64,000 nucleotides of DNA from Deltaproteobacteria bacterium. GTDB lineage: Bacteria > Myxococcota_A > UBA9160 > UBA6930. The notes below the pieces were generated by a model. That model worked only from the letters and a program-made list of their open reading frames with translations, was not told where the DNA came from and ran no database searches. The first letter of the stretch is position 1. Each line of letters starts with the position of its first letter. This document shows, piece by piece, positions 879-17,365 of this stretch. A program made the position numbers and the translations under genes. Location of the stretch: contig JAJDAP010000034.1 in the NCBI GenBank assembly GCA_029261795.1, positions 9,858 through 73,857 of the forward strand, in the 5' to 3' direction.

Positions 879-899
879 GGCCCGGTCTGAACGGGACGG

Positions 900-1643: not shown

Positions 1644-2870
1644 ATGGTGCAGGTTCTGCGCTCGCGGAACGGTAAGGTGGCGATCGACCGCCCTGGAGAC
1701 CCCGAATTGCAGCTGCACTGGCTCCTCGCCGTCGTCCTCATCACCGCCAAGCTGTTTGGAGTGGCGGCCCGCCGTTGGGGATTGCCTGCCGTCGTCGGAG
1801 AGATTCTGGCCGGCGTCGTGCTAGGCCCTTCTCTACTCGGCCTGCTCGAGATCCCGGGGTCCGATGGGAACGGCGATGCCCTGTCGGGGCTCGCACAGAT
1901 CGGGCTCTGCGTGCTGCTCTTCCGCGTGGGGCTCGAGACCGACCTCGACCAGGTCCGGCGTGTGGCAGGGTCGGCGGTGATCCTCGCAGGGGTCGGAATG
2001 CTGCTGCCCTTTGTGCTGGGGGTGTTGGGGGCTTCAGCCTTCGGGGTCGCCCTGCTTCCCGCTCTCTTCATCGGCGCAACCCTTACTGCCACGAGTATCG
2101 GGGTGACCGCCTCGGTGCTCGAAGAACTCCGAGCTGGTGGCACCCGGGCCGCCGCGCTGATCCTGGCAGCGGCCGTCATCGACGACGTGCTCGGTCTCGT
2201 TCTACTGGCCGCACTGATCGGGGTTGGCGCGGCACCGGGCAGCGCCGGGATCGAGGTCGGGATCGCGGTCGCCCAGGCCGTGGGGTTCCTGACGGCAGCG
2301 CTCTGGCTGGGGCCGCCCTTGGCCCGAGCGTCGGACCGTCTTGCCCGCTGGACTCGTTCGCAGAGCATCATCCTTCCGCTCGTCTTCGGCGCTCTTCTGC
2401 TGACGGCGGCCGCAGCCAAGGCCGCAGGGATGGAGATGATCATCGGCGCCTACGCCGCCGGGCTCGCGCTGGTCCGGCACCCGGAGCGCGCATGGCTCGA
2501 GACGAAGCTCGAAGCCGTGATCGAACTATTCACGCCGATCTTCTTCGTACTCGTCGGAAGCTCGATCGCCCTGGAGACGTTCGCGATGGGAACGCCTGCC
2601 GGTCGCACCACTGTGGGATTGGCCGCGCTTCTCTTCAGTGCCGCCATCCTCGGGAAGCTGCTGGCACCGCTCGCGATTCGCAACCTCGACGTTCCAGTCT
2701 TGGCGGTCGGCAGCGCCCTCGTGCCGCGAGGTGAGGTCGGGCTCATCTTTGCACAGGTGGGCCTGAGCGAAGGTGTCCTGAGGCCCGACCTGTTCTCCGC
2801 ACTGACGTTGGTGATCACTGCCACCACACTGGTCGGCCCCGTGATGCTCCGCAGGCTCTGGCGCTCCTGA
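1644..2870 (+). CDS. Cation:proton antiporter, CPA2/NapA-KefB-like family
   Basis: About 12 TM segments; GEILAGVVLGPS, LLFRVGLETD, TATSIG, AAVIDDVLG, LVPRGEVGLI motifs. Confidence 0.9.
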   Translation: MVQVLRSRNGKVAIDRPGDPELQLHWLLAVVLITAKLFGVAARRWGLPAVVGEILAGVVLGPSLLGLLEIPGSDGNGDALSGLAQIGLCVLLFRVGLETDLDQVRRVAGSAVILAGVGMLLPFVLGVLGASAFGVALLPALFIGATLTATSIGVTASVLEELRAGGTRAAALILAAAVIDDVLGLVLLAALIGVGAAPGSAGIEVGIAVAQAVGFLTAALWLGPPLARASDRLARWTRSQSIILPLVFGALLLTAAAAKAAGMEMIIGAYAAGLALVRHPERAWLETKLEAVIELFTPIFFVLVGSSIALETFAMGTPAGRTTVGLAALLFSAAILGKLLAPLAIRNLDVPVLAVGSALVPRGEVGLIFAQVGLSEGVLRPDLFSALTLVITATTLVGPVMLRRLWRS

Positions 2871-2900
2871 GCGACGCGCCCCGAGACCCGATCGCGATCG

Positions 2901-2927
2901 GGTCACCTCCGAGCGCGCGAGGCCGTA
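2901..2927 (+). promoter_or_regulatory. Putative ECF promoter copy 2: GGTCAC-N17-CGTA
   Basis: GGTCAC ctccgagcgcgcgaggc CGTA; 72 nt before ATG 2999; -35 overlaps the right arm of a perfect 20-bp palindrome (2885-2904). Confidence 0.72.
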
Positions 2928-2998
2928 CTACATGGCAGGCGCGAAGGTGGCGGTCGCACGGAGCGTATCGGGCACAAGCGCAAGCAAGGAGATGACAG

Positions 2999-3349
2999 AT
3001 GAGAACCGTTATCGCACTAGCCCTGTTCGTGGGGGCCGTGGCCCTGGTGCCGGCCTTCGCACTCGCGGGGAGCGACTCCCGGTCGGTCGAGCAGTTCGCA
3101 GTCGAGAAGGCGGAGACGCCGGAGGAGCACGCGGACCTGGAACGGCACTACCGCTCGTTGGCGGAAGAAGCGCGCGGACACGTACGCCACCACGAGAAGA
3201 TGGGAAGCTCCTACCGAATAGGCAAGCTGCACAACCGGCAGCGTATGGAGCGCCACTGCAAGAAAATCGCCGAGAGCTACGCCAGCACGGCCAAGGAATA
3301 CGAGGCACTCGCCGACCTCCACAAGGACGAGGCGAGGCAGAGCGAGTAA
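2999..3349 (+). CDS. Small secreted His-rich helical protein, putative periplasmic metal-binding protein
   Basis: Sec signal (..VPAFA); 8 His, 2 Met and 1 Cys in the mature part (EHADLERHY, GHVRHHEKM, MERHC, LHKD); AAGGAG RBS. Confidence 0.7.
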   Translation: MRTVIALALFVGAVALVPAFALAGSDSRSVEQFAVEKAETPEEHADLERHYRSLAEEARGHVRHHEKMGSSYRIGKLHNRQRMERHCKKIAESYASTAKEYEALADLHKDEARQSE

Positions 3350-3374
3350 TCACTCCATCAGTGAGGTTCATGTC

Positions 3375-3818
3375 ATGCGCCTTCTCGATGAGCTTCAGAA
3401 GTTCCTGCACCCGGAGCACATCCTGTCGAAGGATCGGAGCGGCGCGCTCGCGGACAACGAGATCCAAGCTGCGACCGCACTCCTGCTTCTCGAGGCCGCT
3501 CACGGAGATGAGGAATTCGTCTGGCGGGAACACCGCTTGATCGTCCAGGGGCTAGAGCGCGCGTTCGGACTGGCTAGACCCGAGGTGCTCCAGCTGCTCG
3601 AGCGTTCCGAAGAGATCCGGCCCCCTACGGTCCGCCTCGCGGACGTCACCCAGGTGATCATGGATCGCTACGACGAGACTCAGCGGCAGGAGATCGTTCG
3701 ACTCCTGTGGGCGATCGTAGATGCCGACGGAGTCGCCACGGAGTGGGAGAAGGTATTCGCCACGCACGTGGCGCAAGCGCTTGGGATCAGCGACGAGGCA
3801 GCAGCCCAAGGTCGCTAG
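3375..3818 (+). CDS. terB: TerB-family protein
   Basis: AATALLLLEAAHGDEEF..E, LWAIVDADG...WEKVF pattern typical of TerB-like folds. Confidence 0.8.
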   Translation: MRLLDELQKFLHPEHILSKDRSGALADNEIQAATALLLLEAAHGDEEFVWREHRLIVQGLERAFGLARPEVLQLLERSEEIRPPTVRLADVTQVIMDRYDETQRQEIVRLLWAIVDADGVATEWEKVFATHVAQALGISDEAAAQGR

Positions 3819-3894
3819 GACGCGACCCCAGCCGGCCAACTCTTCGTCCGGTATGCGTCGGCGGCAGACCTTGGCGATGACCCCGCGGCCCTTT

Positions 3895-4473
3895 CTAGCC
3901 GCGCGACGGCCGCCCGTGGAGACAGACTGAGAAGTAGTGCCCGAGTGCAATGCCGATGAACCCGATTCCCGCGAGCCCTTCCGCAGCCGCCACGACCTTC
4001 CCAAGCCTGGAGATCGGCGCTAGATCGCCATAGCCCACCGTCGTGATCGTCATGACGCTGAGATAGAGGGACTCGAAGAATAGGTCATGCAGACGCTCGA
4101 TGTGCACACCAAGCGTCACCGGATCGGCCGACCAGAGGAGCGGCAGCCCGACGAAGCTCGCCTCGGTGCTACTCGCCTGCGCGATCGCGTAGCTGCTCGC
4201 GAAAAGCACGATCAGGGCGCCATAGGCCTCCAGCAAAGCGGATAGTTGGAATCGGAGCCGTCCGCTCAGGATCCAGCGCAGCGTCCAGATCACTCCGGCG
4301 CACGGGACGACCACGCCAAGTACGAAGAGCCCGCTGAGGATCCATGGCGAAGGAACAGCGGCCTCCGCCGCGGAGCCGTGCATGCGCAATGAAATGACGA
4401 GCAGCAAACCAAGGTAAGGCGTGAGGCTCGCCGTCAACGTCGGCACAACAATCTGGAGGTGACTTGAATTCAT
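3895..4473 (-). CDS. Two-TM potassium channel pore protein (Ion_trans_2), no RCK domain
   Basis: Selectivity filter YLSVMTITTVGYGDLAP followed by inner helix; extra N-terminal TM segments. Confidence 0.88.
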   Translation of the reverse strand: MNSSHLQIVVPTLTASLTPYLGLLLVISLRMHGSAAEAAVPSPWILSGLFVLGVVVPCAGVIWTLRWILSGRLRFQLSALLEAYGALIVLFASSYAIAQASSTEASFVGLPLLWSADPVTLGVHIERLHDLFFESLYLSVMTITTVGYGDLAPISRLGKVVAAAEGLAGIGFIGIALGHYFSVCLHGRPSRG

Positions 4474-5189
4474 TGGCTCCTGCTTCCTTCTTCACGCAAT
4501 CCATCTGACGATCCAGTATGCAGTTGCGTCCCATGGCGGAGCCGAGAAACGGCGATGGGAATCTGCGCGGCAAGCTGCCTAGACCCCCAACGCGCGAGTT
4601 CAGTGACGGAGAGCCAACGCGTGCCGCCTCCGGGGTAGCGAAGGGCGCGCCACGGGCTCTCGAAGAATGGGACCTGTTGCTCCGAGAACTGCCCCGACCA
4701 CAGAAGAAGCCCCTCCGAACCTCCGTGTAGGGTGGCCCGGAAGCCGACTCCGGCCGCCCGTTGGGGCCGTGTCAGCGCGTTCCTCGGCGACCAGTGCGTG
4801 ACCTCGACCACCAGGAGCGCATCGACGCCGAGACGTTCCGCGGCAACGCGGGCGAGCCGGGCCGCATCACGGTGTAGGTCGGAGGACCGCGTGAGATTGG
4901 CGAGGGTGCCGCGCGTATCCTTGGCGGGCACCACGTCGACCCCTCGTTCCATCAGGGCCTCAGCGAGATAGTGGCCGACGTGTACGGCGGCCTCAGCGTA
5001 GCGCGCCGGGTCGATGGCGGACCGCCTCTCCACCTCGGGCGCAAGCGTCACCGAGGCCACTGCGACGCGATATGCCGACCCTTCGCGTCTCGCAACAGAC
5101 TGGCTTGCCGGAGCCCACGGCGCGCAGGCCAGCGCGCCGGTTGCTGCCAGGATGAGCACGCTCGAAACGCGCCGACTGAGTCCCACCAT
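4470..5189 (-). CDS. Hypothetical lipoprotein
   Basis: Lipobox ..GALAC at residue 22; GAGGAG RBS; ATGA overlap with the K+ channel gene. Confidence 0.7.
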   Translation of the reverse strand: MVGLSRRVSSVLILAATGALACAPWAPASQSVARREGSAYRVAVASVTLAPEVERRSAIDPARYAEAAVHVGHYLAEALMERGVDVVPAKDTRGTLANLTRSSDLHRDAARLARVAAERLGVDALLVVEVTHWSPRNALTRPQRAAGVGFRATLHGGSEGLLLWSGQFSEQQVPFFESPWRALRYPGGGTRWLSVTELARWGSRQLAAQIPIAVSRLRHGTQLHTGSSDGLREEGSRSQ

Positions 5190-5226
5190 GTTCTCCTCGG
5201 TCTACCGGTCTCTTGTGGCCCTGTAC

Positions 5227-5252
5227 TACGGGAGCGGCGTCGCCCTGTGACT
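5227..5252 (-). promoter_or_regulatory. Putative ECF promoter copy 3: AGTCAC-N16-CGTA
   Basis: Minus strand AGTCAC agggcgacgccgctcc CGTA; 38 nt before ATG 5189. Confidence 0.75.
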
Positions 5253-5327
5253 TCGAATGTCGTGGGGGAGCGTCCGCGGCGTCGCCTCTGCAGGCCGGTC
5301 GGCGGGTGCCGGCTGCACTTTTTCTCC

Positions 5328-5354
5328 AGTCACCAGATCGACCCGGATGCCGTA
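5328..5354 (+). promoter_or_regulatory. Putative ECF promoter copy 4 (mtrAB): AGTCAC-N17-CGTA
   Basis: AGTCAC cagatcgacccggatgc CGTA; 63 nt before ATG 5417. Confidence 0.78.
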
Positions 5355-5416
5355 GTACGCGTTGCAGCGGAGTTTGCAGTCCCGTGGGACGCAGCGGCGA
5401 GAAGGGCGATGTCACG

Positions 5417-6373
5417 ATGAACAGCTTGACAGCCTCCAAGCGAACGAGGATTGCCACACTCTGCGTAGGGTCGTTCGTAGCGGCCCTCGTGGCCTGCGTC
5501 AGCGTGGTCTGGACCCCGCTGGGGCCCCGCCGCACGGCCGACGTCGCAAACGCGGAACCCATCGGTGCTCCTGTCTGCGCGGCCTGTCACGAGCAGGTGC
5601 ATGGACAAGAGTCTCCGGCTCCCTTCCACGCGGACTGCGAGAGCTGCCATGGACCGGGAAGCCTTCACGCCGCGAGTGGCGACACTCAGCTCATCCGCTT
5701 CCCGGGTAACGACGACTGTCTCGCGTGTCACACGGAGGGCGTGGCCGAGCACATGGAGTGGGGGACCAGCGAGCACGCCCGCGCTGGGTTGTACTGCTCC
5801 GACTGCCACAATCCCCACAGCGGTGAGGAGAGCGAGCTCCGGCCCTTCGAGCAGGTCGCCCTCCCACGCATCGATCTCGAGTCCGCCCTCTGCGTCGAGT
5901 GCCACCGGGACGTGGCGTCGCGCCTGAAGTTTCCTTCGCACCATCCCGTGGCCGAGGGGGCGCTGGGATGCACCAGCTGCCACAACGCTCACGAAGACCG
6001 GCGCGTCTCGTTCGGTGATCGCAACGAGCGTTGTGCGACCTGCCACCAGGACTACATGGGCCCCTGGGTATTCGAGCACCCGCCGGTCGTCGAGGACTGC
6101 ATGACCTGCCATAACCCTCACGGCGCCGTTACCGAGAATCTCCTCGAGACGATCCAGCCCGTGATCTGTCTCTCCTGTCACTCCCTCCCGGACAGCCGAC
6201 ATCACACCACGGGCTCGTCCGGAATCCCCGGCCAATCGACCATCAGTGGCGACTACCCGACAGCGCCCGGGACGACCATCGGAACGCAGGAGGCCAGAGC
6301 CTTCTTGCGCCGGTGCACCGACTGCCATAGCGCGGTCCACGGATCCTATACCGATGAACACCTACGTCACTAG
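5417..6373 (+). CDS. mtrA: Decaheme c-type cytochrome, MtrA/DmsE/MtoA/PioA family
   Basis: Exactly 10 CXXCH (CAACH, CESCH, CLACH, CSDCH, CVECH, CTSCH, CATCH, CMTCH, CLSCH, CTDCH); GPWVFEHPPV..C..CHNPHG family signature; N-terminal signal with possible LVAC lipobox; start moved to ATG 5417. Confidence 0.93.
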   Translation: MNSLTASKRTRIATLCVGSFVAALVACVSVVWTPLGPRRTADVANAEPIGAPVCAACHEQVHGQESPAPFHADCESCHGPGSLHAASGDTQLIRFPGNDDCLACHTEGVAEHMEWGTSEHARAGLYCSDCHNPHSGEESELRPFEQVALPRIDLESALCVECHRDVASRLKFPSHHPVAEGALGCTSCHNAHEDRRVSFGDRNERCATCHQDYMGPWVFEHPPVVEDCMTCHNPHGAVTENLLETIQPVICLSCHSLPDSRHHTTGSSGIPGQSTISGDYPTAPGTTIGTQEARAFLRRCTDCHSAVHGSYTDEHLRH

Positions 6374-8483
6374 AGCCGCCATCCTCGCCGGCTACGTCCT
6401 CATTGCGACGCCGTTGCTGGCGGACGATCTGACACCGCGAGGCGATGTCACCGTGGGCATCCAGCTCTACCGCCCGGAGGGCCCATTCGAGCGCGACGAC
6501 ACGGCCTCGTTCTTCGACAAGTACCGGTACCTCAAGAACAAGGGCACCGATCTGCCGTTCTTCGTCGATCTGACGCACCTCGACCTGGGCCTCGTCCGCG
6601 ACGACGGAACCTACGCAGTTCGCTTGCAGCGCTGGAGCCCCGGGTGGTCGAACGATCGTGCCGAGCTGGAGGGGGGCTGGCCGGGAGTGTCGCTGCTGGC
6701 CGACTATCGTCGCTATCGGAGCGACGAGCTCCGTTTGTTCTCGAGTCCGACCGGCGTCGGCAGCGCATTCGCCAGCGTGTTCAACGACGACACGTCCGCG
6801 GACGACCGCTTCTTCGTGCGACGAACGAGTGCGGGGCTGGCGGTTCGCGTGCGTCCCGCAGGCTTCGACCACCCATCCGACCTCCTGAAGGAACTGGAGT
6901 TCTCCTCGCGATACGAGCACCGGAGCGGCCAGCGCCAGGATCGCTACGTGCTGAGCGGTTCCCAGGAGCGCGGTGCCGGGGGTCTCAATACGTCCCGCTT
7001 CCGGGCGTTCACCCGGGACATCGACCAGGACGTCACCAGCATCGGGACGCGGATCGTTTCGACTCCCTGGGATCTGCTCACCAGCGCTATCGAGTTGGAG
7101 TTCGAGAGTTTTCGCGAGCGCGCTCCCACTACCACGCTCGGCGCGGGAGAGCCGGGGAGTATCTCGGCCTTCGATCCGGTCGGTATTCTCGCCGGATTCC
7201 AGGATCCCCTGAAGTCACTGCGCGCTTTCAACTACGTCCCTGACACGGATCGCCTGTACGCGTCGCTGCGCGTCCGGCCCCATCTGGGACCGGTTCAATT
7301 CCACGGCGGCGCGTCTGTCACGCGCTTGAAGCAGGCGGGGAGTCGCGCGCCGGAGCAGATCGCCTTTGGCCTCGATGACAATTCGGTCACGACCTATTCG
7401 ATCTACGGCGCTGGCGAGTTTCCGCTGACCGATCAGTTGGCCCTCAACGGGTACGCGAAGTTCTGGAAGCGCCGCAACGCACTCGATTCGGGCAACATCC
7501 TATTCTCCAAGGATCAGACGGACGCCTTCCTCGAGCAGCTGCGCGAGGTGAAGAACGGCCTGGAGCTTCGCGCCACACCGATGGCGGGAACGGACCTGAC
7601 GCTGGGATATCGGGGACGCTTCGTCCGGCGCGACCTCGAGTTCCAGAAGAGCACCCGTTCCGTGGCGCCCGAGTTCACGATCATCGGTGAGGACACCACG
7701 ATACACACCGGCTACCTGGGCTGGAACCTTCGTCTGGTACGGAGCCTCCAACTCTCCGGGGAGGCGGGTTACGAGAACGGCACCGAAATCGGGTACCCGC
7801 GAGAGCTGGAGCGCGCGTACTACGCGAAGGCCCGAGTCTCCTACGTGCTGCCCCGCCCCGTCCCGATGACGCTCACGGCGTCCGGCCGCTTCCTCGACGG
7901 CGAGAGCGACGAGATCGAGCTACTGGGCGAATCAGCGGGAGCGCGGCGCAAGCAGTTCGAGGTGAGACGCTGGAACTACGACGTGACCTTGACAGCGGTT
8001 CCCAAGGAATCGCTCGTGGTCTTCGGCTCGTTCACCCAGCACCGCAACGAGGAACGGTTCGCGCACCTGCGCTCCAATATCCGCCGGTTCGAGGGACCGG
8101 TGCCGGCGAGCATCCTGAACTTCTTCATCGATTCGGTCCCGCAGTACGAAAGCGACGTACTGAGCGTCACCCTTGGTGGCAGCTACCAGATCAGCAAGAC
8201 ACTCGAGGCATCCCTGGCGACCACGGTCACCAGAACCCGCGTCGACATCGCGGGCGGAGGTGGAGCCGCCCGCGCCCTCGACGAAGTCAATCAGATCCGG
8301 AACCAGATCACGAGCATCGAGTGCGGCCTGTCCTATCGAGCCACCCGGCAGGTTCGGCTAGACCTGGGATACCGGTTCGACCGATTCCACGACGATGTCC
8401 GACTGGAGGCACTCGACTTCAGCACGCGCGAGCACACACTCTCGGTCAGCGTGACGATGGACCTCGATGCGCTGACCCCCTGA
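6354..8483 (+). CDS. mtrB: Outer-membrane beta-barrel porin, MtrB/PioB family
   Basis: About 709 aa, Sec signal, alternating amphipathic beta-strand pattern throughout, overlaps the 3' end of mtrA; family call rests mainly on size and synteny. Confidence 0.82.
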   Translation: MNTYVTRAAILAGYVLIATPLLADDLTPRGDVTVGIQLYRPEGPFERDDTASFFDKYRYLKNKGTDLPFFVDLTHLDLGLVRDDGTYAVRLQRWSPGWSNDRAELEGGWPGVSLLADYRRYRSDELRLFSSPTGVGSAFASVFNDDTSADDRFFVRRTSAGLAVRVRPAGFDHPSDLLKELEFSSRYEHRSGQRQDRYVLSGSQERGAGGLNTSRFRAFTRDIDQDVTSIGTRIVSTPWDLLTSAIELEFESFRERAPTTTLGAGEPGSISAFDPVGILAGFQDPLKSLRAFNYVPDTDRLYASLRVRPHLGPVQFHGGASVTRLKQAGSRAPEQIAFGLDDNSVTTYSIYGAGEFPLTDQLALNGYAKFWKRRNALDSGNILFSKDQTDAFLEQLREVKNGLELRATPMAGTDLTLGYRGRFVRRDLEFQKSTRSVAPEFTIIGEDTTIHTGYLGWNLRLVRSLQLSGEAGYENGTEIGYPRELERAYYAKARVSYVLPRPVPMTLTASGRFLDGESDEIELLGESAGARRKQFEVRRWNYDVTLTAVPKESLVVFGSFTQHRNEERFAHLRSNIRRFEGPVPASILNFFIDSVPQYESDVLSVTLGGSYQISKTLEASLATTVTRTRVDIAGGGGAARALDEVNQIRNQITSIECGLSYRATRQVRLDLGYRFDRFHDDVRLEALDFSTREHTLSVSVTMDLDALTP

Positions 8484-8513
8484 ACGCCGCTCGCGCGAGT
8501 CCGTAGCGGCGGG

Positions 8514-10040
8514 TCACGATCCTCCATCGGGACGCTTCGCGGGAAGCACCTCGTAGACGATCGCGGTACAGAAACTCAGCATGATGCCCGCGATGAAGAT
8601 CAACGGGCTGTAGGGAAGCACGGGGTCCTGGTAGACCTCGGCGCCCACCCCCGCGGAGCCGGCGAAACCGACAATGGCGAGTGTCAGCCCGACCGCGAGC
8701 GTCGCCCCCGCGATCCACGTTCGGCGCGTCTCCGACTCAGGGGCCTCGTCTGGCGCCCCGTCTTCAGGATGCGCGAGCGGCACGATCGGAAAGATCTTGG
8801 CGAAGAGCAGGAACGCCAGGCTCGCCAACCCGAACAGGCCCGCGACCACACTGAGCTCCACCCAGTTCGGAACGTAGTGGCCCTTCGCGTAGGGGAGCAG
8901 CATCCCGTCCGTCTGCGATGGGACGACGATCAGCAAGCGTTTCAGGATCGCACCGACGTTGATCACGGCTGCTGCTGCCACGTACCAGCCGATCCGCGTC
9001 GTCCGGCTCAGGAACCGCCAGAGCAGCAGACCGAACCCAAGCGCCAGGGTGCCTACCGTGGACCAGAACATCCAGGCGTACGAGCCGGACACCAGCGAGT
9101 GCTCGAGCGCGCGTTCGGCCGTGGGTGCCGCGTAGCCCGCGGTCAGCTCCTCCACGCCCATCAGGTAGAGATAGGCGAGCGTCAGGACACACTGGAAGTT
9201 CCCCAGGGTCCGGAACGCGGCCGCCTCGATCACGTCCTCCAGATGCATGAGCTTTCGGGCGGAGGCTGCAATGAGGGTCAGCATGGCCAGGCCCGAGGCC
9301 CCTGCGAGAACCACGAAGCTCGGCGCCTGGAGCGCGCTGAACCAGCCCGGCCGACCCGCCACGATCCCGAACACGAAGCCGAGCGTCGAATGGGCAACGA
9401 CCAGGAGCGGGAGGATGAGCAGGGAGAGCCAGAAACTCACCACGCGGTGCCGCGCCGCCTCGGCATGCGTGCCGCGGAACCCGCTTCCCCACAGACGGTG
9501 GAGCCACCTCCAACGCGAGGGAACGCTGGCGCACGTCGCCGCACACGCGCGGCCCGCGAGGAAGAAGTAGACGAGACTGGCGAACAGGTAGCCGGCGACG
9601 ACCAGCGTGAACGTTCCGAAGAAGGGTGATGACGGCCTCGCGTAGAGCGGGAGGTACAGCAGGCCATGCAACGGCCGGCCGAGATCGGCCATGATGGTCA
9701 TCCCGCCCATCAACAGCGCAATGATTGTGAGGAACTCGGCCATCCGCGTGAGTGGCCGGAGTTCCGGTAGTGGAAACAGCCGTACCAGCGCCGCCGCGCT
9801 GATCCCGGCAAAACTCACGCCCACGAAGTAGATGTCGAATGCGACGTAGAGCCCCCATGCCGCGCCGCCCTGGCCGATCGTGCGAAGACCGGTCGCGACC
9901 AGTCCCTCGCGAAGCTGAACGGAATAGGCCCACGCGCCCCACAGCGCCAGCGATGCGGAAACCCCGACGGCGGCCAACCAGTATCGGCCCGGGCGATCGA
10001 GCCCGAGGGCGTCCCTGCGTTCCTGGGTAGTTTGCTCCAC
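8514..10040 (-). CDS. NrfD/PsrC-family quinone-interacting membrane subunit (QrcD/ActC-like)
   Basis: WGLYVAFDIYFVG, MADLGRP..., SSPFF, HSTLGFVFG...RPGWFS, Y.PNWVEL motifs; about 10 TM plus 2 extra C-terminal TM. Confidence 0.9.
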   Translation of the reverse strand: MEQTTQERRDALGLDRPGRYWLAAVGVSASLALWGAWAYSVQLREGLVATGLRTIGQGGAAWGLYVAFDIYFVGVSFAGISAAALVRLFPLPELRPLTRMAEFLTIIALLMGGMTIMADLGRPLHGLLYLPLYARPSSPFFGTFTLVVAGYLFASLVYFFLAGRACAATCASVPSRWRWLHRLWGSGFRGTHAEAARHRVVSFWLSLLILPLLVVAHSTLGFVFGIVAGRPGWFSALQAPSFVVLAGASGLAMLTLIAASARKLMHLEDVIEAAAFRTLGNFQCVLTLAYLYLMGVEELTAGYAAPTAERALEHSLVSGSYAWMFWSTVGTLALGFGLLLWRFLSRTTRIGWYVAAAAVINVGAILKRLLIVVPSQTDGMLLPYAKGHYVPNWVELSVVAGLFGLASLAFLLFAKIFPIVPLAHPEDGAPDEAPESETRRTWIAGATLAVGLTLAIVGFAGSAGVGAEVYQDPVLPYSPLIFIAGIMLSFCTAIVYEVLPAKRPDGGS

Positions 10041-10042
10041 GG

Positions 10043-10903
10043 TCAGTGGCGCCTCTCACGTCGAAGATGGAAGACCTTGGGCTTCGTGCCGAGGTGCTCG
10101 AGCAGCTGGTCGGCGCGCGGGCTCGTCGCCGCGAGAGCCACCCGGCTCCCCGGATCGTTCAGGTCGCCGAAGACGATGGCCTCGGCGGGGCACGACTCGG
10201 CACAAGCCGGCAGCGACTGGAAGTCGGTATCGGACAGGCTGACCCCGTCGACCCTGGCGCTTTCTGTCACCGAACGGATCCGGTGGGAGCAGAACGTGCA
10301 CTTCTCCACGACGCCGGCGGGACGCGTGGCAACGTCGGGGTTCAAGGTGTTGAGGTGGCTGGTCGGCCACTCGGGGGCATCCCAGTTGAAGAAGCGGACG
10401 CCGTAGGGGCACGCGACCTCACAGAAGCGGCAGCCAATGCAGCGGTCGTAGATCTGGGCGACGATTCCGTCGCCAGTTTGATAGGTGGCGCCAACCGGGC
10501 AAACCGGAACACAAGGCGGGTCTTCGCAATGCAAACAGGGCAGCGGAAGCATTTCTGGAGCTGATTCGCTCCCCTCGGAACGGTCTTCGAGCGGCAACAG
10601 GTTCATCCACAGGATGTCGGTTCCGTCGCTCTCTTCGGCGCTGCCGGTGGCCGGTACGTTGTTTTCCGTGCGGCACGCCACCACACAGGCTCCGCAACCC
10701 GTACAACGATCGAGATCGATCGCCATGCCCCATTTTCGCTTCTCGTCATCCGTCGCGACGGTCCTCTCCCGCTCGGGCGAACCCGCCAGCGCGCGTCGCG
10801 GGGAGGACATCAGGAACGCCCATAGTGCGCTCGCTGCGACGAGCGCCGAAACCACGAAGCGATGGGCGAACGCCCGGCGCGTCAGATTGCGGGGGATCAT
10901 CAT
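10043..10903 (-). CDS. 4Fe-4S dicluster electron-transfer subunit (NrfC/QrcC/DsrO-like)
   Basis: Four cluster motifs CTGCGACVVAC, CLHCEDPPCVPVCP, CIGCRFCEVACP, CTFC..CAESCP; Tat-like TRRAF. Confidence 0.93.
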   Translation of the reverse strand: MMIPRNLTRRAFAHRFVVSALVAASALWAFLMSSPRRALAGSPERERTVATDDEKRKWGMAIDLDRCTGCGACVVACRTENNVPATGSAEESDGTDILWMNLLPLEDRSEGSESAPEMLPLPCLHCEDPPCVPVCPVGATYQTGDGIVAQIYDRCIGCRFCEVACPYGVRFFNWDAPEWPTSHLNTLNPDVATRPAGVVEKCTFCSHRIRSVTESARVDGVSLSDTDFQSLPACAESCPAEAIVFGDLNDPGSRVALAATSPRADQLLEHLGTKPKVFHLRRERRH

Positions 10904-10907
10904 TTCC

Positions 10908-13277
10908 CTACGCCCTCCGGATCCGCACGTTTACACCCTGCAGCACCGGCGTCCCGACGAACGGATCGAGTTCGTGTGGGATCAACTCCATGACGTTGGC
11001 CCCCCTGCCAAGTGCGAAGCGGCCCCATGCCGTGTGGCCGCCGCCCTTCGCGATCCGTACGACATCGGGGTGCACGCCCGCCCGAACGGCCACCGGCAGC
11101 TCGATCGATCCCAGGGGGCTCTCGATCCGCACCCGATCGCCCGCCGCAACGTGGGCCTGATCGGCGGTGTCGGGATGGAGGAATGCGGTGGTCTGCCAGG
11201 CGCGGTCACCAGGCTCGGTCACGAGTTCCTGCAGCACGGGAAGGTTGGCGCCGCTGCCTTCGGCGTACGAGCCGGGTTGGTACGGCTCGAGCAGCAACGG
11301 GAAGTCCGGGCTCGAGTGCTTCGCGGGATCGGCGAAGTGCGGCAGGCACGCAAGCTCGCGATCGATCCCGACTCCGGATTCGCGAAGCCAGCTTTCGCCG
11401 AAGCCCTGCCAGAGTCGGAGGGAGAAGAACTCGAACCTGCCGGAGGGGGTGCGAATCGACTCCTGGCGAGGGGAACCAGGGTCCTCCCAGAACCCGCGGC
11501 GGAACAATGCGCGCAGGAAGTGCGGCACGCTTCCTTCGATGATCGACCCGCGCTGCGCCTCATGGATCCCGCTGAGTCGTTCAAAGAGTGCAGCACGGAA
11601 GTCAGGCCATGGAAACGCTTCAGCGACCTTCCCACCCATCTGGCGCGCCAGTTCCAACACGACATCTGCACTCGGCCGGGTGTCGTGGAGCGGTTCCACC
11701 AGCGGTTGGCGAACGCCCTGCACCGGAAAACCGACGCTAGGCGCGGAGGCAGCGTCCTCCCAACGTTCGAGATAGCTGTGATCCGGAAGCACGAGATCCG
11801 CGATCTCGGCAGTGGTCTCGTCCAGGAACGGCGAGAAGCTCACGACGAACGGGACGCGTGCGAGCGCGCGACGCCAGCGCGCTGGGTCCATTCCGGAATA
11901 GCAGGGGTTCGAGTAGTAGAGGAACAACGTGTCGATGGAGCCGGCTGGTTGCGCGAGCAGGGCGTCCGCAAGGTCGTCGATGCCGCGCGATCCCAGCGGC
12001 CGGGACGACGTGGCGATTCCCGGTCGCTGCAGACTCGCCTGCGCGAGGTCGTCCAACTCCAGCGAAGGCCAATCGGCCGTGGGCGGGTCGCTCTGGACAA
12101 GGAGTCCACCAGGACGATCAATGGCACCGAGGAGCGCATTCAGTGCATGTACCGCCATGGCGGTGTGGAGTGCACCGCGCTCGCGGGTTCCGACCCCCCG
12201 AGACACCACGAAGGACGGCCCATTGGCGGCGAGTTCGGCCGCCAAACGCTCGACCGTCTCCGTCGGAATCCGGCAGCACTCCGCGACGCGCTCAGGGGAG
12301 TAGTCGCGCACCAGGAGGTCCCGGAAGCCCCTATGCGTACGGCCCTGGTCATCGGTCCAGTTTTCGAACCCGAAGGCGCGCCCGGCAATGAAGTCGCGGT
12401 CGTAGAGACGGTCGCGTACCAGCACGTGCGCGAGGCCCATGGCGAGCGCACCATACGAGCCCGGGGCAATCCGGACCCACTCGTCAGCATTCGCCGCGGT
12501 GCGAGAGTACGACGGCTCTACCTGGACGATCGTGCCTCGCTCGGCTCCGCGGTGAGTGCGGTAGTGCACCGTCGAGCGCGCTTGATGCACGGACTGGCAG
12601 GACTCCTCGAGAAGAGGAGCTCCCAGGCTCAGGACGTAACGGGCTCGTGGCCAGTCATACGCTGGCGTCTCGCGGACGCCTTGCATGGCGTAGAGGGCGC
12701 TGGCCGTTGCGCCGTCCTTGCGCAGGGACACATCCAGGAATGTCGGTGTTCCGAAACTTCGGGCGAAGCGCTCCCAGAGGTCGCGGATCATGCCACGCTC
12801 GCGGCCACAGACGATTGCGAGCCTGTCTGGACGCCCCCTCGAACGCAGGGCTCCGAGGCGAGTGGCCAGACCCGAGAGCGCCTCGTCCCACGAGACCTCC
12901 GCAAGCGCTCCGCCTTGTCGTCGCATCGGTCCGCGGATCCGATCGGGGTCGTACAGAACGTACGGGGAGGCCAACCCGCGCGGCCCGATGCCACCAGGAT
13001 GGACTGGGTTGCCCGGCTGGCCGCGAACGGAAACCACCCTGCCTTCGACCACTCGCGCGGAGATGCCACAACCGGCCGGACACTGCGCACACGCGGTCGC
13101 AATCGTCTTCTCTTCATGCAGGTTCCATCGCTCTGCGCCGGGCACCGACGGTTTCTCGAGCGAGTAGGGATCCTGGCTCGAGCACGCTGCGAGCGGGGCT
13201 CCGGCGACGACACCGGCTCCCGCCCTCAGGAAATTCCGGCGTCCGGCATCGTGCGGGCGTCCCTTCGGCCACGTCAT
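10908..13277 (-). CDS. Molybdopterin oxidoreductase-family (DMSOR/CISM) large subunit, QrcB/ActB-like, probably non-catalytic
   Basis: Tat GRRNFL; CAQCPAGC; YDPDRIRGPM; EPSYSRTAANADEW..I.PG..GALA; ADLVLPDHSYLERW; HPDTA C-terminal domain; start ATG 13277 overlaps the upstream stop. Confidence 0.88.
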   Translation of the reverse strand: MTWPKGRPHDAGRRNFLRAGAGVVAGAPLAACSSQDPYSLEKPSVPGAERWNLHEEKTIATACAQCPAGCGISARVVEGRVVSVRGQPGNPVHPGGIGPRGLASPYVLYDPDRIRGPMRRQGGALAEVSWDEALSGLATRLGALRSRGRPDRLAIVCGRERGMIRDLWERFARSFGTPTFLDVSLRKDGATASALYAMQGVRETPAYDWPRARYVLSLGAPLLEESCQSVHQARSTVHYRTHRGAERGTIVQVEPSYSRTAANADEWVRIAPGSYGALAMGLAHVLVRDRLYDRDFIAGRAFGFENWTDDQGRTHRGFRDLLVRDYSPERVAECCRIPTETVERLAAELAANGPSFVVSRGVGTRERGALHTAMAVHALNALLGAIDRPGGLLVQSDPPTADWPSLELDDLAQASLQRPGIATSSRPLGSRGIDDLADALLAQPAGSIDTLFLYYSNPCYSGMDPARWRRALARVPFVVSFSPFLDETTAEIADLVLPDHSYLERWEDAASAPSVGFPVQGVRQPLVEPLHDTRPSADVVLELARQMGGKVAEAFPWPDFRAALFERLSGIHEAQRGSIIEGSVPHFLRALFRRGFWEDPGSPRQESIRTPSGRFEFFSLRLWQGFGESWLRESGVGIDRELACLPHFADPAKHSSPDFPLLLEPYQPGSYAEGSGANLPVLQELVTEPGDRAWQTTAFLHPDTADQAHVAAGDRVRIESPLGSIELPVAVRAGVHPDVVRIAKGGGHTAWGRFALGRGANVMELIPHELDPFVGTPVLQGVNVRIRRA

Positions 13278-13795
13278 TGGTGGCACGCCAGGCATTCGAG
13301 CGTGGCTCCGTATTGCGTGTGACACGACATGCAGTCCTCCATTGACTGCATCGACGCATCCGGTCGGCTGTAGGGCCGGGGCATCCGGGCGACGTCCACA
13401 TGGCACTCACCACAGGACATCTCGGCGAGCGACACATGCACTCGGTGGGAGAAATAGACGTGGCCGGGGTAGCGATTCACCTGGACGAACGGGATCTGCT
13501 CGCCGCGTGCGGCGTACCCGCTCACCTTGGCCAGCTCCGGCCGATCGGACGGCCCAGAATGGCATTGTGCGCAGACCCGGATGGAAGGCAGGCCCGCGTG
13601 GCGGTTGGTCCCCGCGCTCCCGTGGCACGCTGCGCACTCTAGCTGTACGTCGCCGACGTGGAGTGAATGATCGAAGGCGACGGGTTGCACGACCGCGGCT
13701 GGTCCCTCGCACGCTCGAGCAACTGCAAGGCCCACAACGAGAAAGGTTGCCGCAGACAGACCCGCGATCAGTGTCGGGAGGCGGATTCGCTCCAT
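13274..13795 (-). CDS. Membrane-anchored pentaheme cytochrome c (QrcA/ActA-like)
   Basis: 5 CXXCH (CAACH, CAQCH, CGECH, CMSCH, CLACH); FDHSLH and FSHRVH distal His motifs; N-terminal TM; GGAGG RBS (TTG 13798 is an alternative start). Confidence 0.9.
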   Translation of the reverse strand: MERIRLPTLIAGLSAATFLVVGLAVARACEGPAAVVQPVAFDHSLHVGDVQLECAACHGSAGTNRHAGLPSIRVCAQCHSGPSDRPELAKVSGYAARGEQIPFVQVNRYPGHVYFSHRVHVSLAEMSCGECHVDVARMPRPYSRPDASMQSMEDCMSCHTQYGATLECLACHQ

Positions 13796-13833
13796 CAACG
13801 ATCACCTCCCGGCTCGATCACGAACGATGAACC

Positions 13834-14235
13834 TCAGTCGGAGCCCGGCGAGGACTCGTCGGGCGTCTTCCCGAGCTCGGAGAGATAGGCCACGATCGAG
13901 TCGAGTTCTGCCTCCGTTCCCGTGAAGCCCATGGGATGCTTCCTTCCGTCCAGATCCACCTCCTTGCGAAGGAACGCAACGATCCACTCGGATTGATGCC
14001 GGTCGCCCACGAGGGAGAGGTCGGGGGGACCATTCGACGCGTCCTCCTCTCCGAACGGATCGTCTGCAACAGCAGGCGACGAGCCGAGCTTTTCGACCCC
14101 ATCCGTGGCAATGCCGTGGCAGAGGTTGCAGCGCTGCTGCAGGAACTTGTCCCTACCCTCCTCCGCGGCGGCAGGGGCCGCCGTGAGCAGAGCCGCGAAG
14201 GCAACCCACAACCCGCATGCAATGAGCTTCCACAT
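13834..14235 (-). CDS. Periplasmic monoheme cytochrome c
   Basis: Sec signal ..PAAA; CNLCH; PDLSLVG; HPMGF candidate Met ligand; GGAGG RBS before ATG 14235. Confidence 0.85.
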   Translation of the reverse strand: MWKLIACGLWVAFAALLTAAPAAAEEGRDKFLQQRCNLCHGIATDGVEKLGSSPAVADDPFGEEDASNGPPDLSLVGDRHQSEWIVAFLRKEVDLDGRKHPMGFTGTEAELDSIVAYLSELGKTPDESSPGSD

Positions 14236-14279
14236 CTTCCCTCCCCGAGCGAATCGCTCCATGGAGATCCTGCCGTGTA

Positions 14280-14306
14280 TACGGCACGAGCGTGCCGGAA
14301 GTGACT
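14280..14306 (-). promoter_or_regulatory. Putative ECF promoter copy 5 (cytochrome/Qrc-like operon): AGTCAC-N17-CGTA
   Basis: Minus strand AGTCAC ttccggcacgctcgtgc CGTA; 45 nt before ATG 14235. Confidence 0.78.
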
Positions 14307-14314
14307 CCGATAGG

Positions 14315-14341
14315 AGTCACCAGATTTCCCTGGCCCCCGTA
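14315..14341 (+). promoter_or_regulatory. Putative ECF promoter copy 6 (gdhA): AGTCAC-N17-CGTA
   Basis: AGTCAC cagatttccctggcccc CGTA; 20 nt before TTG 14361; shares AGTCACCAGAT with copy 4. Confidence 0.78.
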
Positions 14342-14360
14342 TTGTGGAGTGGAGAACTCC

Positions 14361-15635
14361 TTGGACGCACCCATTCGATCGACTGACGAGACACTTTGCC
14401 ACTGTCAGGAGGACCAGGCGCACTTCCTCGAGCGCGCCTTCGAGCAGCTGGGGCTCGACGACTCCCGGCGCCGGTTGCTCCTTCATTCCTTCCGTGAGAT
14501 ATCCGTGCAGATCCCGCTCGAAGTGCAGCGCAACGGACAACGCGAGGTCGAGACATTCACGGGCGTCCGCGTGCAGCACAACCACGCGAGGGGTCCGTTC
14601 AAGGGAGGGCTTCGTTTCCACCCACTGGTGGAGCAGGGAGAGGTTCGCGCGCTCGCGCAGCTGATGACCTGGAAGTCTGCGTTGGCCGACATCCCGTTCG
14701 GTGGTGCCAAGGGCGGGATCGCGGTGGATCCTCGCCAGCTGTCCACTGGTGAACTGGAAACGTTGACCAAGCGGTTCACCCAGAAGATGGCGCCCGTGAT
14801 CGGCGTCCACCGGGACATTCCTGCTCCGGATGTCGGCACCAGCCCGCAGGTCATGGCATGGATCTTCGAGGAGTACAGCAAGACGAACGGTCACACGCCC
14901 GCGATCGTCACGGGCAAACCTGTCGAACTGGGGGGAGCCGAGGGCCGCCTCGAAGCGACCGGCCACGGTGTTGCGTTCCTCACCGCGCGGGCGTGTCTCG
15001 GCCGCGACATCGACATCGCGGGAGCTCGTGTTGCTGTTCAGGGGTTCGGCAACGTGGGCATGCATACCGCGCGGCGTCTCGCCGAACTCGGGGCACTCGT
15101 GATCGCGGTCTCGGATGTCGACGGCGGCGTCATCTGCGAATCCGGCATCGATGTCCTCGAGGCAAGCGCCCATGTCGCCGAGTGCGGAAGCCTCGCGGGA
15201 TTTCGCGGAGGGGACCCGATTACCAACGCGGAGTTGCTTTCGCTTCCCTGCGACGTCCTGATTCCGGCCGCCCTCGATGGTTCGATCAACTGTGACAACG
15301 AGCCGGGCGTCCGCGCCGGGCTGGTCGTCGAAGCCGCGAACATGCCGGTCACCCACGGCGCGGACGCAGCCCTGAAAGAGAGGGGAGTCGAAGTAGTTCC
15401 GGATGTGCTCGCCAACGTCGGAGGCGTCGCGGCCTCCTACTTCGAGTGGGTCCAGAACCTGCAGCAGTTGCCGTGGAGCCGGGATGCACTCCTAGGTCGC
15501 CTCGAAGAGCACCTGGCTCGTGCCTTCGACACAGTGATCGCATTGCGAGAACATCGCGGTGTCGACCTTCGAACGGCCGCCTATGAGCTGGCCGTAGCGC
15601 GCGTGCTGCGCGCCGTCGAACTTCGCGGATTTTGA
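14361..15635 (+). CDS. gdhA: Glu/Leu/Phe/Val dehydrogenase (glutamate dehydrogenase)
   Basis: RVQHNHARGPFKGGLRFHP, MTWKSA, PFGGAKGG, DIPAPDVGT, VTGKP, QGFGNVG, EAANMP, SYFEWVQN; TTG start with GGAG RBS. Confidence 0.93.
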   Translation: MDAPIRSTDETLCHCQEDQAHFLERAFEQLGLDDSRRRLLLHSFREISVQIPLEVQRNGQREVETFTGVRVQHNHARGPFKGGLRFHPLVEQGEVRALAQLMTWKSALADIPFGGAKGGIAVDPRQLSTGELETLTKRFTQKMAPVIGVHRDIPAPDVGTSPQVMAWIFEEYSKTNGHTPAIVTGKPVELGGAEGRLEATGHGVAFLTARACLGRDIDIAGARVAVQGFGNVGMHTARRLAELGALVIAVSDVDGGVICESGIDVLEASAHVAECGSLAGFRGGDPITNAELLSLPCDVLIPAALDGSINCDNEPGVRAGLVVEAANMPVTHGADAALKERGVEVVPDVLANVGGVAASYFEWVQNLQQLPWSRDALLGRLEEHLARAFDTVIALREHRGVDLRTAAYELAVARVLRAVELRGF

Positions 15636-15711
15636 GGGTTCCAAGGACTGCGACGCAGCCACAAGCCGGTAACCCTCGAAGTTCGTGGCCCCGACTCGAT
15701 CCCGCGCGATG

Positions 15712-16380
15712 CTATTTGGCTGGCGCTTGGTCCGGGGGCGCCCGGAAGACCGCCAGGGTCGCCATCCCAGCGGCAGAGACGCTCATCCGTTCCAGGTTCG
15801 GGAGAGTTCGAATCGGCTCACGGTCGACAACGCGATAGGAGAAGGGGTTGCCGATTGCAGTGACGACCGCGAGCAGGAGCCTGGAGCGGGGCGGGGTAAA
15901 GAAGACGAAGACGGCCGTTCCTCCCGGCGCCAGCTTTCGCAACGCATCGCGAACGGTTGCGTCCGGCGTATCGAGGTGCGAGAGGAGCCAGCTGGAAACG
16001 ACGAAGTCGAAGGTGCCGCCGACGGCCTGCAGGTCGGTCGCGTCGCCGATGCGTAGCTCGATCCTGTCGTCCGCTTGCGCTCGGGCTCGAGCTCGCACCA
16101 GCATCTCTTCGCTCGAGTCGATCCCGAGGTAGGAACCGAACCCGCGGGTCCAGCGGAACAGGCGTTCGATGTTGATCCCGGTACCAGGAGCCAGCTCGAG
16201 GATTCGCGATTCGGCACCGATCCGCTCTCGAAAGAGCTGGTCGAGATCTTCCTCGATGGGACGAGTCCAGCGACCCCAGACGGCTCGGAACGCGTCATAG
16301 AAGCGCGCGAACCAGCTGTACACACGGCGGACTCGGTCCAGCTGGGGAGGGTTCACGGTTGCGTTGGTCCCGTTCGTCAT
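15712..16380 (-). CDS. Class I SAM-dependent methyltransferase (UbiE-like)
   Basis: ILELAPGTG motif I, GIDSSEEML, FDFVVSSWLLSH, LAPGG. Confidence 0.85.
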   Translation of the reverse strand: MTNGTNATVNPPQLDRVRRVYSWFARFYDAFRAVWGRWTRPIEEDLDQLFRERIGAESRILELAPGTGINIERLFRWTRGFGSYLGIDSSEEMLVRARARAQADDRIELRIGDATDLQAVGGTFDFVVSSWLLSHLDTPDATVRDALRKLAPGGTAVFVFFTPPRSRLLLAVVTAIGNPFSYRVVDREPIRTLPNLERMSVSAAGMATLAVFRAPPDQAPAK

Positions 16381-17039
16381 GGGAGTTGGTGCCTCGCCGG
16401 CTGCGCAGCGCGCTTCCAGCTGGGAATCCAGCGAGGCGTCACACGGGCGTACTCGGCGTAGGCCGGACCGAACTCCGTGCGCGCCTCCTCCTCTTCACGC
16501 AGTGCGAATCGCACGTACATGTGAACGAGGATTGGAAACATCACGAGCGTGATCAGTGTCGGCCACTGGAAGAGGAAGCCGGCAAGGATCGCGATGAATC
16601 CCACGTACTGGGGATGACGAATGCGCGAATAGGCTCCGGTCGTGGCGAGTCCACCTTCGCGTTGGGCGCGGTAGAGGATTGGCCAGGCGACCGAGAGCAG
16701 CCAGAAGCCACCGCCGATCAGGACATAGCTGAGCACATGGAAGGGATCGAAATGGGGGTCGCCCTCCCAACCGAGAAGCGTGTGCCAGAGATGGCCAGCT
16801 TCATGCGAAAAGATGTCGAGTTGTGGGAAGTGCTGCCCGAACCAGCCGGAGAGCAGATAGATGGTGAGCGGGAAGCCGTACATCTCGACGAACAACGCCA
16901 CGAGGAATGCGGAGAAGGCCCCGAACGAACGCCAGTCACGTGAGCTCTGCGGCTTCGCAAAACTGAAGGCGAACAGGATGAAGATGGCCGCGTTGAGCAC
17001 GACCACGGACCACAGGCCGTAGGCCGATTCGTGACTCAC
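16377..17039 (-). CDS. Isoprenylcysteine carboxyl methyltransferase (ICMT/PEMT)-family membrane protein
   Basis: FVEMYGFPLTIYLL, TTGAYSRIRHPQYVG, EEEE..FG.AY.EY; family commonly found beside copper-resistance genes. Confidence 0.88.
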   Translation of the reverse strand: MSHESAYGLWSVVVLNAAIFILFAFSFAKPQSSRDWRSFGAFSAFLVALFVEMYGFPLTIYLLSGWFGQHFPQLDIFSHEAGHLWHTLLGWEGDPHFDPFHVLSYVLIGGGFWLLSVAWPILYRAQREGGLATTGAYSRIRHPQYVGFIAILAGFLFQWPTLITLVMFPILVHMYVRFALREEEEARTEFGPAYAEYARVTPRWIPSWKRAAQPARHQLP

Positions 17040-17296
17040 GGTTCCTGGCCTGGCTGCGAGGCGTCACCCCCAGTGGCGTGCGATCCGGGACCCTTGTGCC
17101 CGCGGTGCATGAACACGTGCATCAGTGGACAGATCGCGAGAATCATCCATGGCAGATACGCGATCACGTGTGCCCGGTGCTCGGCCCACAGGAAGTAGGC
17201 TGCGGCAGCCGCAAACACACCAAAAGCGATGCGTCTGGAGAGCGCGCCGTCCGCGCCGGGCTCCTGGGTCACAGGGCTGGACCGCAGCTCATCCAT
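17036..17296 (-). CDS. DUF2933-family small membrane protein
   Basis: AEHRAH...LPWMILAICPLMHVFMHRGH signature; start moved to ATG 17296. Confidence 0.85.
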   Translation of the reverse strand: MDELRSSPVTQEPGADGALSRRIAFGVFAAAAAYFLWAEHRAHVIAYLPWMILAICPLMHVFMHRGHKGPGSHATGGDASQPGQEP

Positions 17297-17334
17297 CGGG
17301 TCCCCGGAAATCTTTGTTGCCCATCGTCCGAGAC

Positions 17335-17361
17335 TACGGCGCACGCCCCCGGGTGGTGACC
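17335..17361 (-). promoter_or_regulatory. Putative ECF promoter copy 7: GGTCAC-N17-CGTA
   Basis: Minus strand GGTCAC cacccgggggcgtgcgc CGTA; 39 nt before ATG 17296. Confidence 0.78.
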
Positions 17362-17365
17362 GATC

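Follow-up and report, generated by a model that had tools for sequence, protein, structure and literature searches.

Quinone-active modules that travel with Mtr gene clusters are known in several forms, including CymA, NetBCD and MtoC (PMC8805035; PMC5566968). NetBCD, which consists of an NrfB-like pentahaem cytochrome, an NrfC-like iron-sulfur (FeS) protein and an NrfD encoded beside mtr, takes the place of CymA according to genetic evidence (PMC8805035). A role as the entry point of inward-flowing electrons has been proposed for Qrc in the syntrophic sulfate reducers that partner anaerobic methanotrophic archaea (ANME) (PMC10553843), and for alternative complex III (ACIII) a partnership with Cyc2 in iron oxidisers (PMC5566968). 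QrcD has been reported only from 35 deltaproteobacterial species (PMC8076601), and a survey of the quinol oxidases of extracellular electron transfer (EET) leaves Qrc, NrfD and molybdopterin-type complexes unmentioned (PMC6295460). Here we describe a locus at which a decahaem cytochrome and an MtrB-like outer-membrane barrel converge on a five-gene operon for a Qrc/ACIII-like complex. It lies in a stretch of 64,000 nucleotides (the window, C34:9858-73857, on a contig of 92 kb) from a 5.7-Mb metagenome-assembled genome (MAG) that is 91% complete and comes from a biofilm metagenome, its nearest public relatives being Myxococcota MAGs. Contigs carry C-numbers, relative genomes G-numbers and homologous loci L-numbers. 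Judged from gene content and context, we think it fairly likely that the two convergent operons are the two halves of one envelope-spanning electron path. They are laid out as follows in window coordinates:

5417–6373, + strand: MtrA-like periplasmic decahaem cytochrome c (318 amino acids, 10 CXXCH, signal peptide)
6354–8483, + strand: MtrB-like outer-membrane barrel of a divergent subfamily (709 amino acids, 26 strands in the model)
8484–8513: tail-to-tail intergenic gap (30 bp)
8514–10040, − strand: NrfD/ActC-like quinone-interacting membrane subunit (508 amino acids, Pfam NrfD 85 bits)
10043–10903, − strand: periplasmic FeS subunit (16 Cys in four cluster motifs, its own RR signal)
10908–13295, − strand: molybdopterin-oxidoreductase-like (Mo-like) subunit with a twin-arginine (Tat) signal
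13274–13798, − strand: membrane-anchored pentahaem cytochrome c, ActA/QrcA-like (5 CXXCH)
13834–14235, − strand: small class-I monohaem cytochrome c with a cleavable signal, a candidate periplasmic shuttle

This arrangement resembles mtoA-mtoB-mtoD-cymA/imoA (or mtoC) of Sideroxydans and Gallionella and pioABC of Rhodopseudomonas in combining a decahaem cytochrome and a barrel, without a surface cytochrome, with a monohaem cytochrome and a quinone-active module alongside. Unlike those systems, it has an inner-membrane partner of four subunits (Mo-like, FeS, NrfD and pentahaem) instead of a NapC/NirT tetrahaem, a barrel that scores below the Pfam and TIGRFAM thresholds, convergent operons and a non-autotrophic myxococcotal host. 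In Aeromonas hydrophila the NetBCD genes that adjoin mtrCAB (cited in PMC8805035) likewise comprise an NrfD-family subunit, an NrfC-like FeS protein and a pentahaem cytochrome, a likeness that is architectural only; the present locus differs in its additional Mo-like subunit and monohaem, in an ActC-like membrane subunit of 12 predicted helices and in the lack of MtrC. With QrcABCD of sulfate reducers it shares subunit types and order (cytochrome c, a Mo-like subunit without the molybdenum (Mo) ligand, FeS, NrfD), but it misses all four equivalog cut-offs, carries five haems where Qrc has six, and has an extra monohaem, an ACIII-like membrane subunit and a host that is no sulfate reducer. With ACIII (ActABCDEF; 6F0K, 6BTM, 6LOD, 8K9E) it shares an ActA-type pentahaem with an N-terminal helix, an ActC-type membrane subunit, the presence of a monohaem and a degenerate Mo-like domain; unlike in ACIII, the Mo-like and FeS genes are separate and there is no fused ActB, a single NrfD-like subunit is accompanied by neither ActD nor ActF, and the monohaem has no lipobox. 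The putative OmcK/OmcL conduit (GSU2203/GSU2204) of Geobacter and syntrophic sulfate-reducing bacteria is a further relative, as GSU2203 is the top match of the decahaem and the barrel weakly touches the GSU2204 model, but these scores (216/325 and 27/350) are far below cut-off and the barrel has no CXXCH.

The locus is therefore a known principle, a quinone module accompanying an Mtr conduit, in a new variant. The original prediction had put the pairing forward as a co-regulated unit that had not been described. This holds in so far as a literature search returned no account of this Qrc-like clade as a conduit partner, and it fails in so far as quinone modules that travel with Mtr genes have already been published.

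The outer-membrane pair and the inner-membrane complex

The original prediction gave a decahaem gene, a barrel gene, a 30-bp gap and a convergent five-gene operon, and the list of open reading frames (ORFs) and the haem-motif counts match this anatomy exactly, including the total of 16 haems (10+5+1 CXXCH). The decahaem and barrel genes overlap by 20 nt, the genes within each operon overlap or are separated by at most 35 nt, and the monohaem start at 14235 has a GGAGG Shine-Dalgarno sequence just upstream. A scan of the 30-bp gap for a terminator or promoter returned no terminator-like hairpin and nothing else.

Domains were assigned with Pfam and NCBIfam profiles, and comparison with solved structures relied on PDB sequence matches and, for the barrel model, on Foldseek. 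The decahaem matches MtrA of the solved Mtr complex (PDB 6r2q_A) at E 2.3e-28 over residues 45-310. Against the DmsE/MtrA family (TIGR03508) it scores 183.2 bits and does not reach the cut-off of 192.2, and its top NCBIfam match is the GSU2203/OmcK family, with 215.6 bits at a cut-off of 325. The barrel remains below threshold against both Pfam MtrB_PioB (PF11854; 17.5 bits, threshold 23) and TIGR03509 (14.8 bits, threshold 240), and PF11854 is weakly matched by 11 of 15 members of the barrel family, with a best value of 1.9e-9. An AlphaFold2 model of the barrel, built on a 15-sequence alignment, nevertheless has 26 strands (predicted local distance difference test, pLDDT, 79; predicted template-modelling score, pTM, 0.75), and its top PDB match in Foldseek is MtrB (6r2q_B, E 2.7e-23, template-modelling (TM) scores of 0.63/0.69); the next matches are 22-strand TonB-dependent receptors at about 6e-10 and a TM score of 0.38. 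As an exhaustive profile search yielded 238 representatives at 50% identity, and as the curated sequence thresholds are missed by a pair whose barrel has the MtrB fold, the pair is a small, divergent MtrAB-type subfamily, recognisable by structure and gene organisation. The identification of the pair as an MtrAB-type porin-cytochrome is thus sustained, with a porin that is MtrB-like by fold and barely so by sequence models.

The cluster encodes no MtrC/OmcA surface decahaem, and the whole 92-kb contig has no further multihaem ORF (no other ORF with at least 3 CXXCH), in line with the earlier statement that neither mtrC nor cymA/NapC lies at the locus. Among the 12 related MtrA-barrel cassettes (L013-L020, L113-L116), one (L020) has an upstream ORF of 869 amino acids with 10 haems. 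Elsewhere in the same genome, C54:2021-5624 and C3:37160-45258 hold adjacent, very large multihaem ORFs (21+18 and 9+21 haems) built of repeated CxxCH...NH units. These are candidate periplasmic or extracellular wires, and they could be the missing surface partner of an MtrC-less conduit.

In the second operon, the best NCBIfam matches of the Mo-like, FeS and pentahaem subunits are QrcB, QrcC and QrcA, respectively. All Qrc scores are below their equivalog cut-offs (QrcA 86/180, QrcB 298/440, QrcC 261/400, QrcD 26/570), and the FeS subunit scores 199.5 bits against the DsrO model, whose cut-off is 200. By comparison with solved structures the membrane-bound parts are of ACIII type: the closest PDB chains of the NrfD subunit are ActC of ACIII (6lod_C at 1.8e-21, 6f0k_C, 6btm_C, 8k9e_C), and the best match of the pentahaem is ActA (8k9e_A, E 1.1e-20). 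The inner-membrane complex is neither Qrc nor ACIII, and a canonical ACIII with fused ActB is encoded elsewhere in the genome, on C35. Hydropathy gives the NrfD subunit about 10 core transmembrane helices and two extra C-terminal ones. The latter make up the C-terminal 75 or so amino acids (window 8514-8740), beyond the ActC-homologous core, in a protein whose length is kept in close relatives (514-531 amino acids). A PDB search with this two-helix extension returned no homologue; the extension could be a fused ActD-like element. The operon has only one NrfD gene and neither an ActF nor an ActD gene. The monohaem shows no detectable similarity to ActE, only weak CcoO-like matches, and has no lipobox; its gene also adjoins the pentahaem gene in L026, G037 and L030.

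The best solved-structure matches of the Mo-like subunit are ArrA (8e-61) and PsrA (1e-47). In the PDB alignments, and in an alignment of 13 family members, the Cys that ligates Mo in these enzymes aligns to Lys/Asp in the window protein, at a position that is variable within the clade, and Gly replaces the fourth FS0 Cys in every clade member. The C-x2-C-x3-C part of FS0 (window 13050-13130) is invariant across the clade, the fourth position lying within GGIGP[RK]G, and more distant Mo-like relatives keep both the fourth FS0 Cys and the Mo-ligand Cys. The Mo-like subunit is probably a non-catalytic scaffold, and the alignment suggests that, although otherwise regarded as cofactor-less, it retains a 3-Cys FS0 cluster, which may be [3Fe-4S]. 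The degenerate Mo site and the subunit affinities mark the complex, as far as sequence comparison can, as a Qrc/ACIII-like electron-transfer module and not a reductase, which upholds the earlier description of the second operon on profile, PDB and alignment evidence. In a distant Mo-like clade, L052, L053 and L041 keep the fourth FS0 Cys, and L052 and L053 also have a Cys near the Mo-ligand position. All three adjoin MtrA/MtrB-type genes and an FeS gene, and an NrfD anchor is present wherever the contig extends far enough. Their Mo-like subunits may be active molybdoenzymes wired to a conduit, in an arrangement differing from Shewanella DmsEFAB.

Probable linkage of the two operons, from promoter motif and gene order in relatives

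Both operons are preceded by the same promoter motif of the extracytoplasmic function (ECF) type, as had been noted in the original prediction, and the gene for an ECF sigma factor with its own copy of the motif lies nearby:

5328–5354, + strand: ECF-type promoter motif AGTCAC-N17-CGTA (core from 5329), upstream of the decahaem gene
14280–14305, − strand: the same ECF-type motif ahead of the five-gene operon, within a palindrome common with the divergent gdh promoter
900–1526, − strand: ECF sigma factor gene with its own motif copy at 1481-1506, the candidate regulator of both operons

The window has 10 copies of the core GTCAC-N16/17-CGTA, where 0.33 are expected, and none of 100 shuffles reached 10. 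Nine of the 10 copies fall within 101-17391 (starting at 101, 1481, 2902, 5227, 5329, 14280, 14316, 17335 and 17367), and the whole 5.7 Mb holds 44. In this island the motif precedes the sigma gene, a Na/H exchanger, both electron-transfer operons, gdh, methyltransferases and a CusCBA-like pump (17716-23681), as well as the gene for a His-rich small protein (followed by a TerB gene) and a lipoprotein gene (followed by an ion-channel gene). From the distribution of this motif, both operons are probably co-regulated by the neighbouring ECF sigma, along with the CusCBA-type metal pump. An electron conduit inside a probable metal-stress regulon is unusual.

In relatives, Qrc-like operons orthologous to that of the window are found with other porin-cytochrome genes. 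The closest metagenomic homologue of the Mo-like subunit (L026/L027, 56% identity) belongs to a single operon in the order EB_dh, MtrA, MtrB, monohaem, pentahaem, Mo-like, FeS, NrfD, on one strand and with gene gaps of -4 to 34 nt. The MtrA (DmsE family, 283 bits > 192) and MtrB (TIGR03509, 366 bits > 240) of this operon pass the curated thresholds. The EB_dh protein at its head (L026 68-1000) has a haem-b-binding domain (PF09459) and may act as a terminal redox protein, in the periplasm or at the surface. An orthologous Qrc-like operon is present in one of 40 relatives, G037 (Mo-like 57% identity), where the monohaem, pentahaem and Mo-like genes are immediately preceded, on their own strand, by the gene for a canonical MtrB (Pfam 414 bits). 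Downstream of its NrfD gene, L030 encodes in turn a 7-haem cytochrome, a 704-amino-acid protein that has a signal peptide and ends in the ...YAF signature of barrels, and a 9-haem cytochrome whose signal may be that of a lipoprotein.

A tree of 91 Mo-like subunits places the window in the clade with Gly in FS0. Within its subclade, all members with usable flank (L028, L029, L030, L032, L033, L061 and L069) stand beside a porin-cytochrome set or a cytochrome of at least 8 haems; the six other than L030 adjoin cytochromes of 9 to 26 haems. Two more distant Mo-like clades also adjoin canonical MtrAB. Cytochromes of 26 haems are encoded in L061 (7720-9507) and L069 (3-1397), directly upstream of the pentahaem gene, both loci belonging to the clade that is sister to the Mo-like subunit of the window, and in L070 (19051-22152), about 6.7 kb downstream, on the opposite strand and in a more distant clade.

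Seen from the side of the MtrA-barrel cassette, the same convergent position is occupied by a Rieske/cytochrome b operon in two, probably three, of the 12 related cassettes. The operon that faces the cassette tail to tail in L115 and L116 encodes Rieske, cytochrome b, a membrane tetrahaem and c554, and in G037 a tetrahaem of this operon type (58% identity) follows its own window-type cassette. G037 has both conduit types with partners swapped: the window-type MtrA-barrel adjoins the membrane tetrahaem, and the canonical MtrB is upstream of the Qrc-like operon (contigs C357/L013, C370/L025 and C277/L024). Two quinone-coupled modules in one slot, together with two barrel types beside the Qrc-like module, form the pattern predicted by modular functional coupling. 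Functional coupling of the two operons is well supported by comparative context: relatives have the orthologous Qrc-like genes either in one operon with bona fide MtrA-MtrB or beside further porin-cytochrome or multihaem sets.

Proposed electron path, its direction and competing explanations

Based on homology and gene context, the outer half of the path would be the decahaem threaded through the 26-strand MtrB-like barrel, carrying electrons across the outer membrane, and the inner half the Qrc/ACIII-like complex, coupling periplasmic cytochromes to the quinone pool. Electrons would pass between a quinone site in the NrfD/ActC-like subunit, the four clusters of the FeS subunit, the membrane-anchored pentahaem, the soluble monohaem cytochrome and finally the decahaem; the Mo-like subunit would be a scaffold poor in cofactors, perhaps with one 3-Cys cluster left. 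The neighbouring ECF sigma would switch on both operons together with the CusCBA-type pump. The quinone module would be interchangeable, a Rieske/cytochrome b operon taking its place in relatives and the nearest Qrc-like orthologues pairing with canonical MtrAB.

Several points weigh against a single path of this kind. The convergent arrangement means that the two operons are not one transcript, and the four public sequencing runs of the source are all DNA; RNA runs were looked for and none was found. No surface cytochrome is encoded in the cluster to act as an extracellular partner. Qrc-like genes are near none of the 12 related cassettes, even at E<=1 in flanks of up to 10 kb, and four cassette-carrying relatives have no Qrc-like orthologue at E<=1e-60, so that the cassette can work with other partners. 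The canonical ACIII of C35 and the genome-encoded haem-copper oxidase could serve MtrAB. The direction of flow is not readable from sequence, and the genome is only 91% complete. In favour of the path, this genome has no second MtrA, no canonical MtrB and no NapC/CymA family member above cut-off that could be the partner elsewhere; the sole sub-threshold match (18.8 bits) is in a multihaem ORF of 749 amino acids on C125. Co-location in relatives is accordingly upheld for the Qrc-like operon and other MtrAB or multihaem sets, and not for this exact pairing, which is not a conserved unit among the related cassettes.

As to direction, we give roughly an even chance to outward flow, in which quinol is oxidised and an extracellular acceptor reduced, a clearly smaller one to inward uptake, and a smaller one again to flow in both directions depending on conditions. 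The inward explanation, tentative as it is, survives best among the alternatives. On this view the donor is a cathode-like one or a reduced mineral or metal (Fe(II), Cu(I)); its electrons enter by MtrAB, are handed on by the cytochromes and reach the Qrc-like complex, where quinone is reduced electrogenically, as by Qrc in Desulfovibrio. A two-gene cassette without MtrC is what is found in MtoAB and PioAB, a class-I monohaem stands in place of MtoD, and the MtrA-MtrB-monohaem-membrane module of L026 mirrors mtoA-mtoB-mtoD-cymA (PMC5566968). The B, C and A subunits score highest against the NCBIfam Qrc models, an inward role is that proposed for Qrc in the ANME-partner sulfate reducers (PMC10553843), and the haem-copper oxidase is available as a sink. 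Against this, the NrfD subunit and the pentahaem are nearer to ActC and ActA of ACIII, a quinol oxidiser, than to Qrc (26 bits for QrcD, where 570 is the cut-off), and the positional analogue in related cassettes is a Rieske/cytochrome b complex. Clusters of some relatives encode large extracellular cytochromes with MtrC domains, typical of outward transfer, and the genome has no RuBisCO and so no evident use for pushing electrons uphill to quinone. Moreover, Fe(II) and Cu(I) at neutral pH are, by their redox potentials, poor reductants for menaquinone. The original prediction of inward flow as the natural direction thus rests on analogy and is not borne out, the affinities of the NrfD subunit and pentahaem pointing outward.

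That the two operons are adjacent by coincidence seems improbable. In that case the Qrc-like complex would have another periplasmic redox task, such as exchange between soluble cytochromes and quinone, and MtrAB would have ACIII or something else as its partner. Such independence is in keeping with the related cassettes, none of which has Qrc-like genes nearby, with the canonical ACIII on C35 and with the 80 more distant Mo-like loci, most of which have neither MtrA nor MtrB in the available flank; the island regulon also includes unrelated genes (gdh, the Na/H exchanger, methyltransferases). It sits poorly with the repeated linkage of close Qrc-like homologues to porin-cytochromes in varied arrangements, single-operon fusions among them, with the promoter motif common to both operons, with a gap of only 30 bp and with a quinone module in the same convergent slot in L115 and L116.

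A working molybdoenzyme, in which the subunit of the dimethyl sulfoxide reductase family would reduce a sulfur or arsenic compound as Psr, Phs and Arr do and exchange electrons with MtrAB, compare DmsEFAB of Shewanella, is very improbable: ArrA and PsrA are its best structural matches, the Tat signal is kept and the distant MtrAB-linked L052/L053 clade has a Cys near the ligand position, but the Mo-ligand position is Lys/Asp and variable in the clade, the fourth FS0 Cys is Gly clade-wide, both being kept in distant relatives, the top NCBIfam match is the cofactor-less QrcB, and an operon with an NrfD anchor and two cytochromes is unlike extracellular DmsAB. An extracellular molybdoenzyme like that of DmsEFAB was rejected on account of the degenerate Mo site and the NrfD anchor.

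A candidate quinone-pool adaptor of porin-cytochrome conduits

A wider possibility, to which we give rather less than even credence, is that an unnamed third branch of the Qrc/ACIII superfamily serves outer-membrane porin-cytochrome conduits as their dedicated quinone-pool adaptor in Myxococcota, Planctomycetota and further phyla that have been little studied, where it is swapped as a cassette with Rieske/cytochrome b, and that here a metal-sensing ECF sigma deploys this branch together with a Cus-type pump, making EET a metal-stress response and not part of energy metabolism. The putative branch would be recognised by Gly in place of the fourth FS0 Cys, by a missing Mo ligand, by Mo-like and FeS parts encoded separately and by only one NrfD, of 12 helices. 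If this were true, the conduit would reduce or oxidise a toxic metal extracellularly.

The inner-membrane partner is unknown for most carriers of MtrAB/MtoAB-type conduits outside Shewanella, Aeromonas and Sideroxydans. Because relatives of the locus described here show single-operon fusions, and because modules are swapped at one genomic slot, gene context nominates a widespread, uncharacterised Qrc/ACIII-like clade as that partner. This has a bearing on the old proposal that ACIII-type complexes serve the conduits of iron oxidisers, and the context of an ECF sigma and a Cus pump raises the idea that in this organism the conduit may be a metal-stress device.

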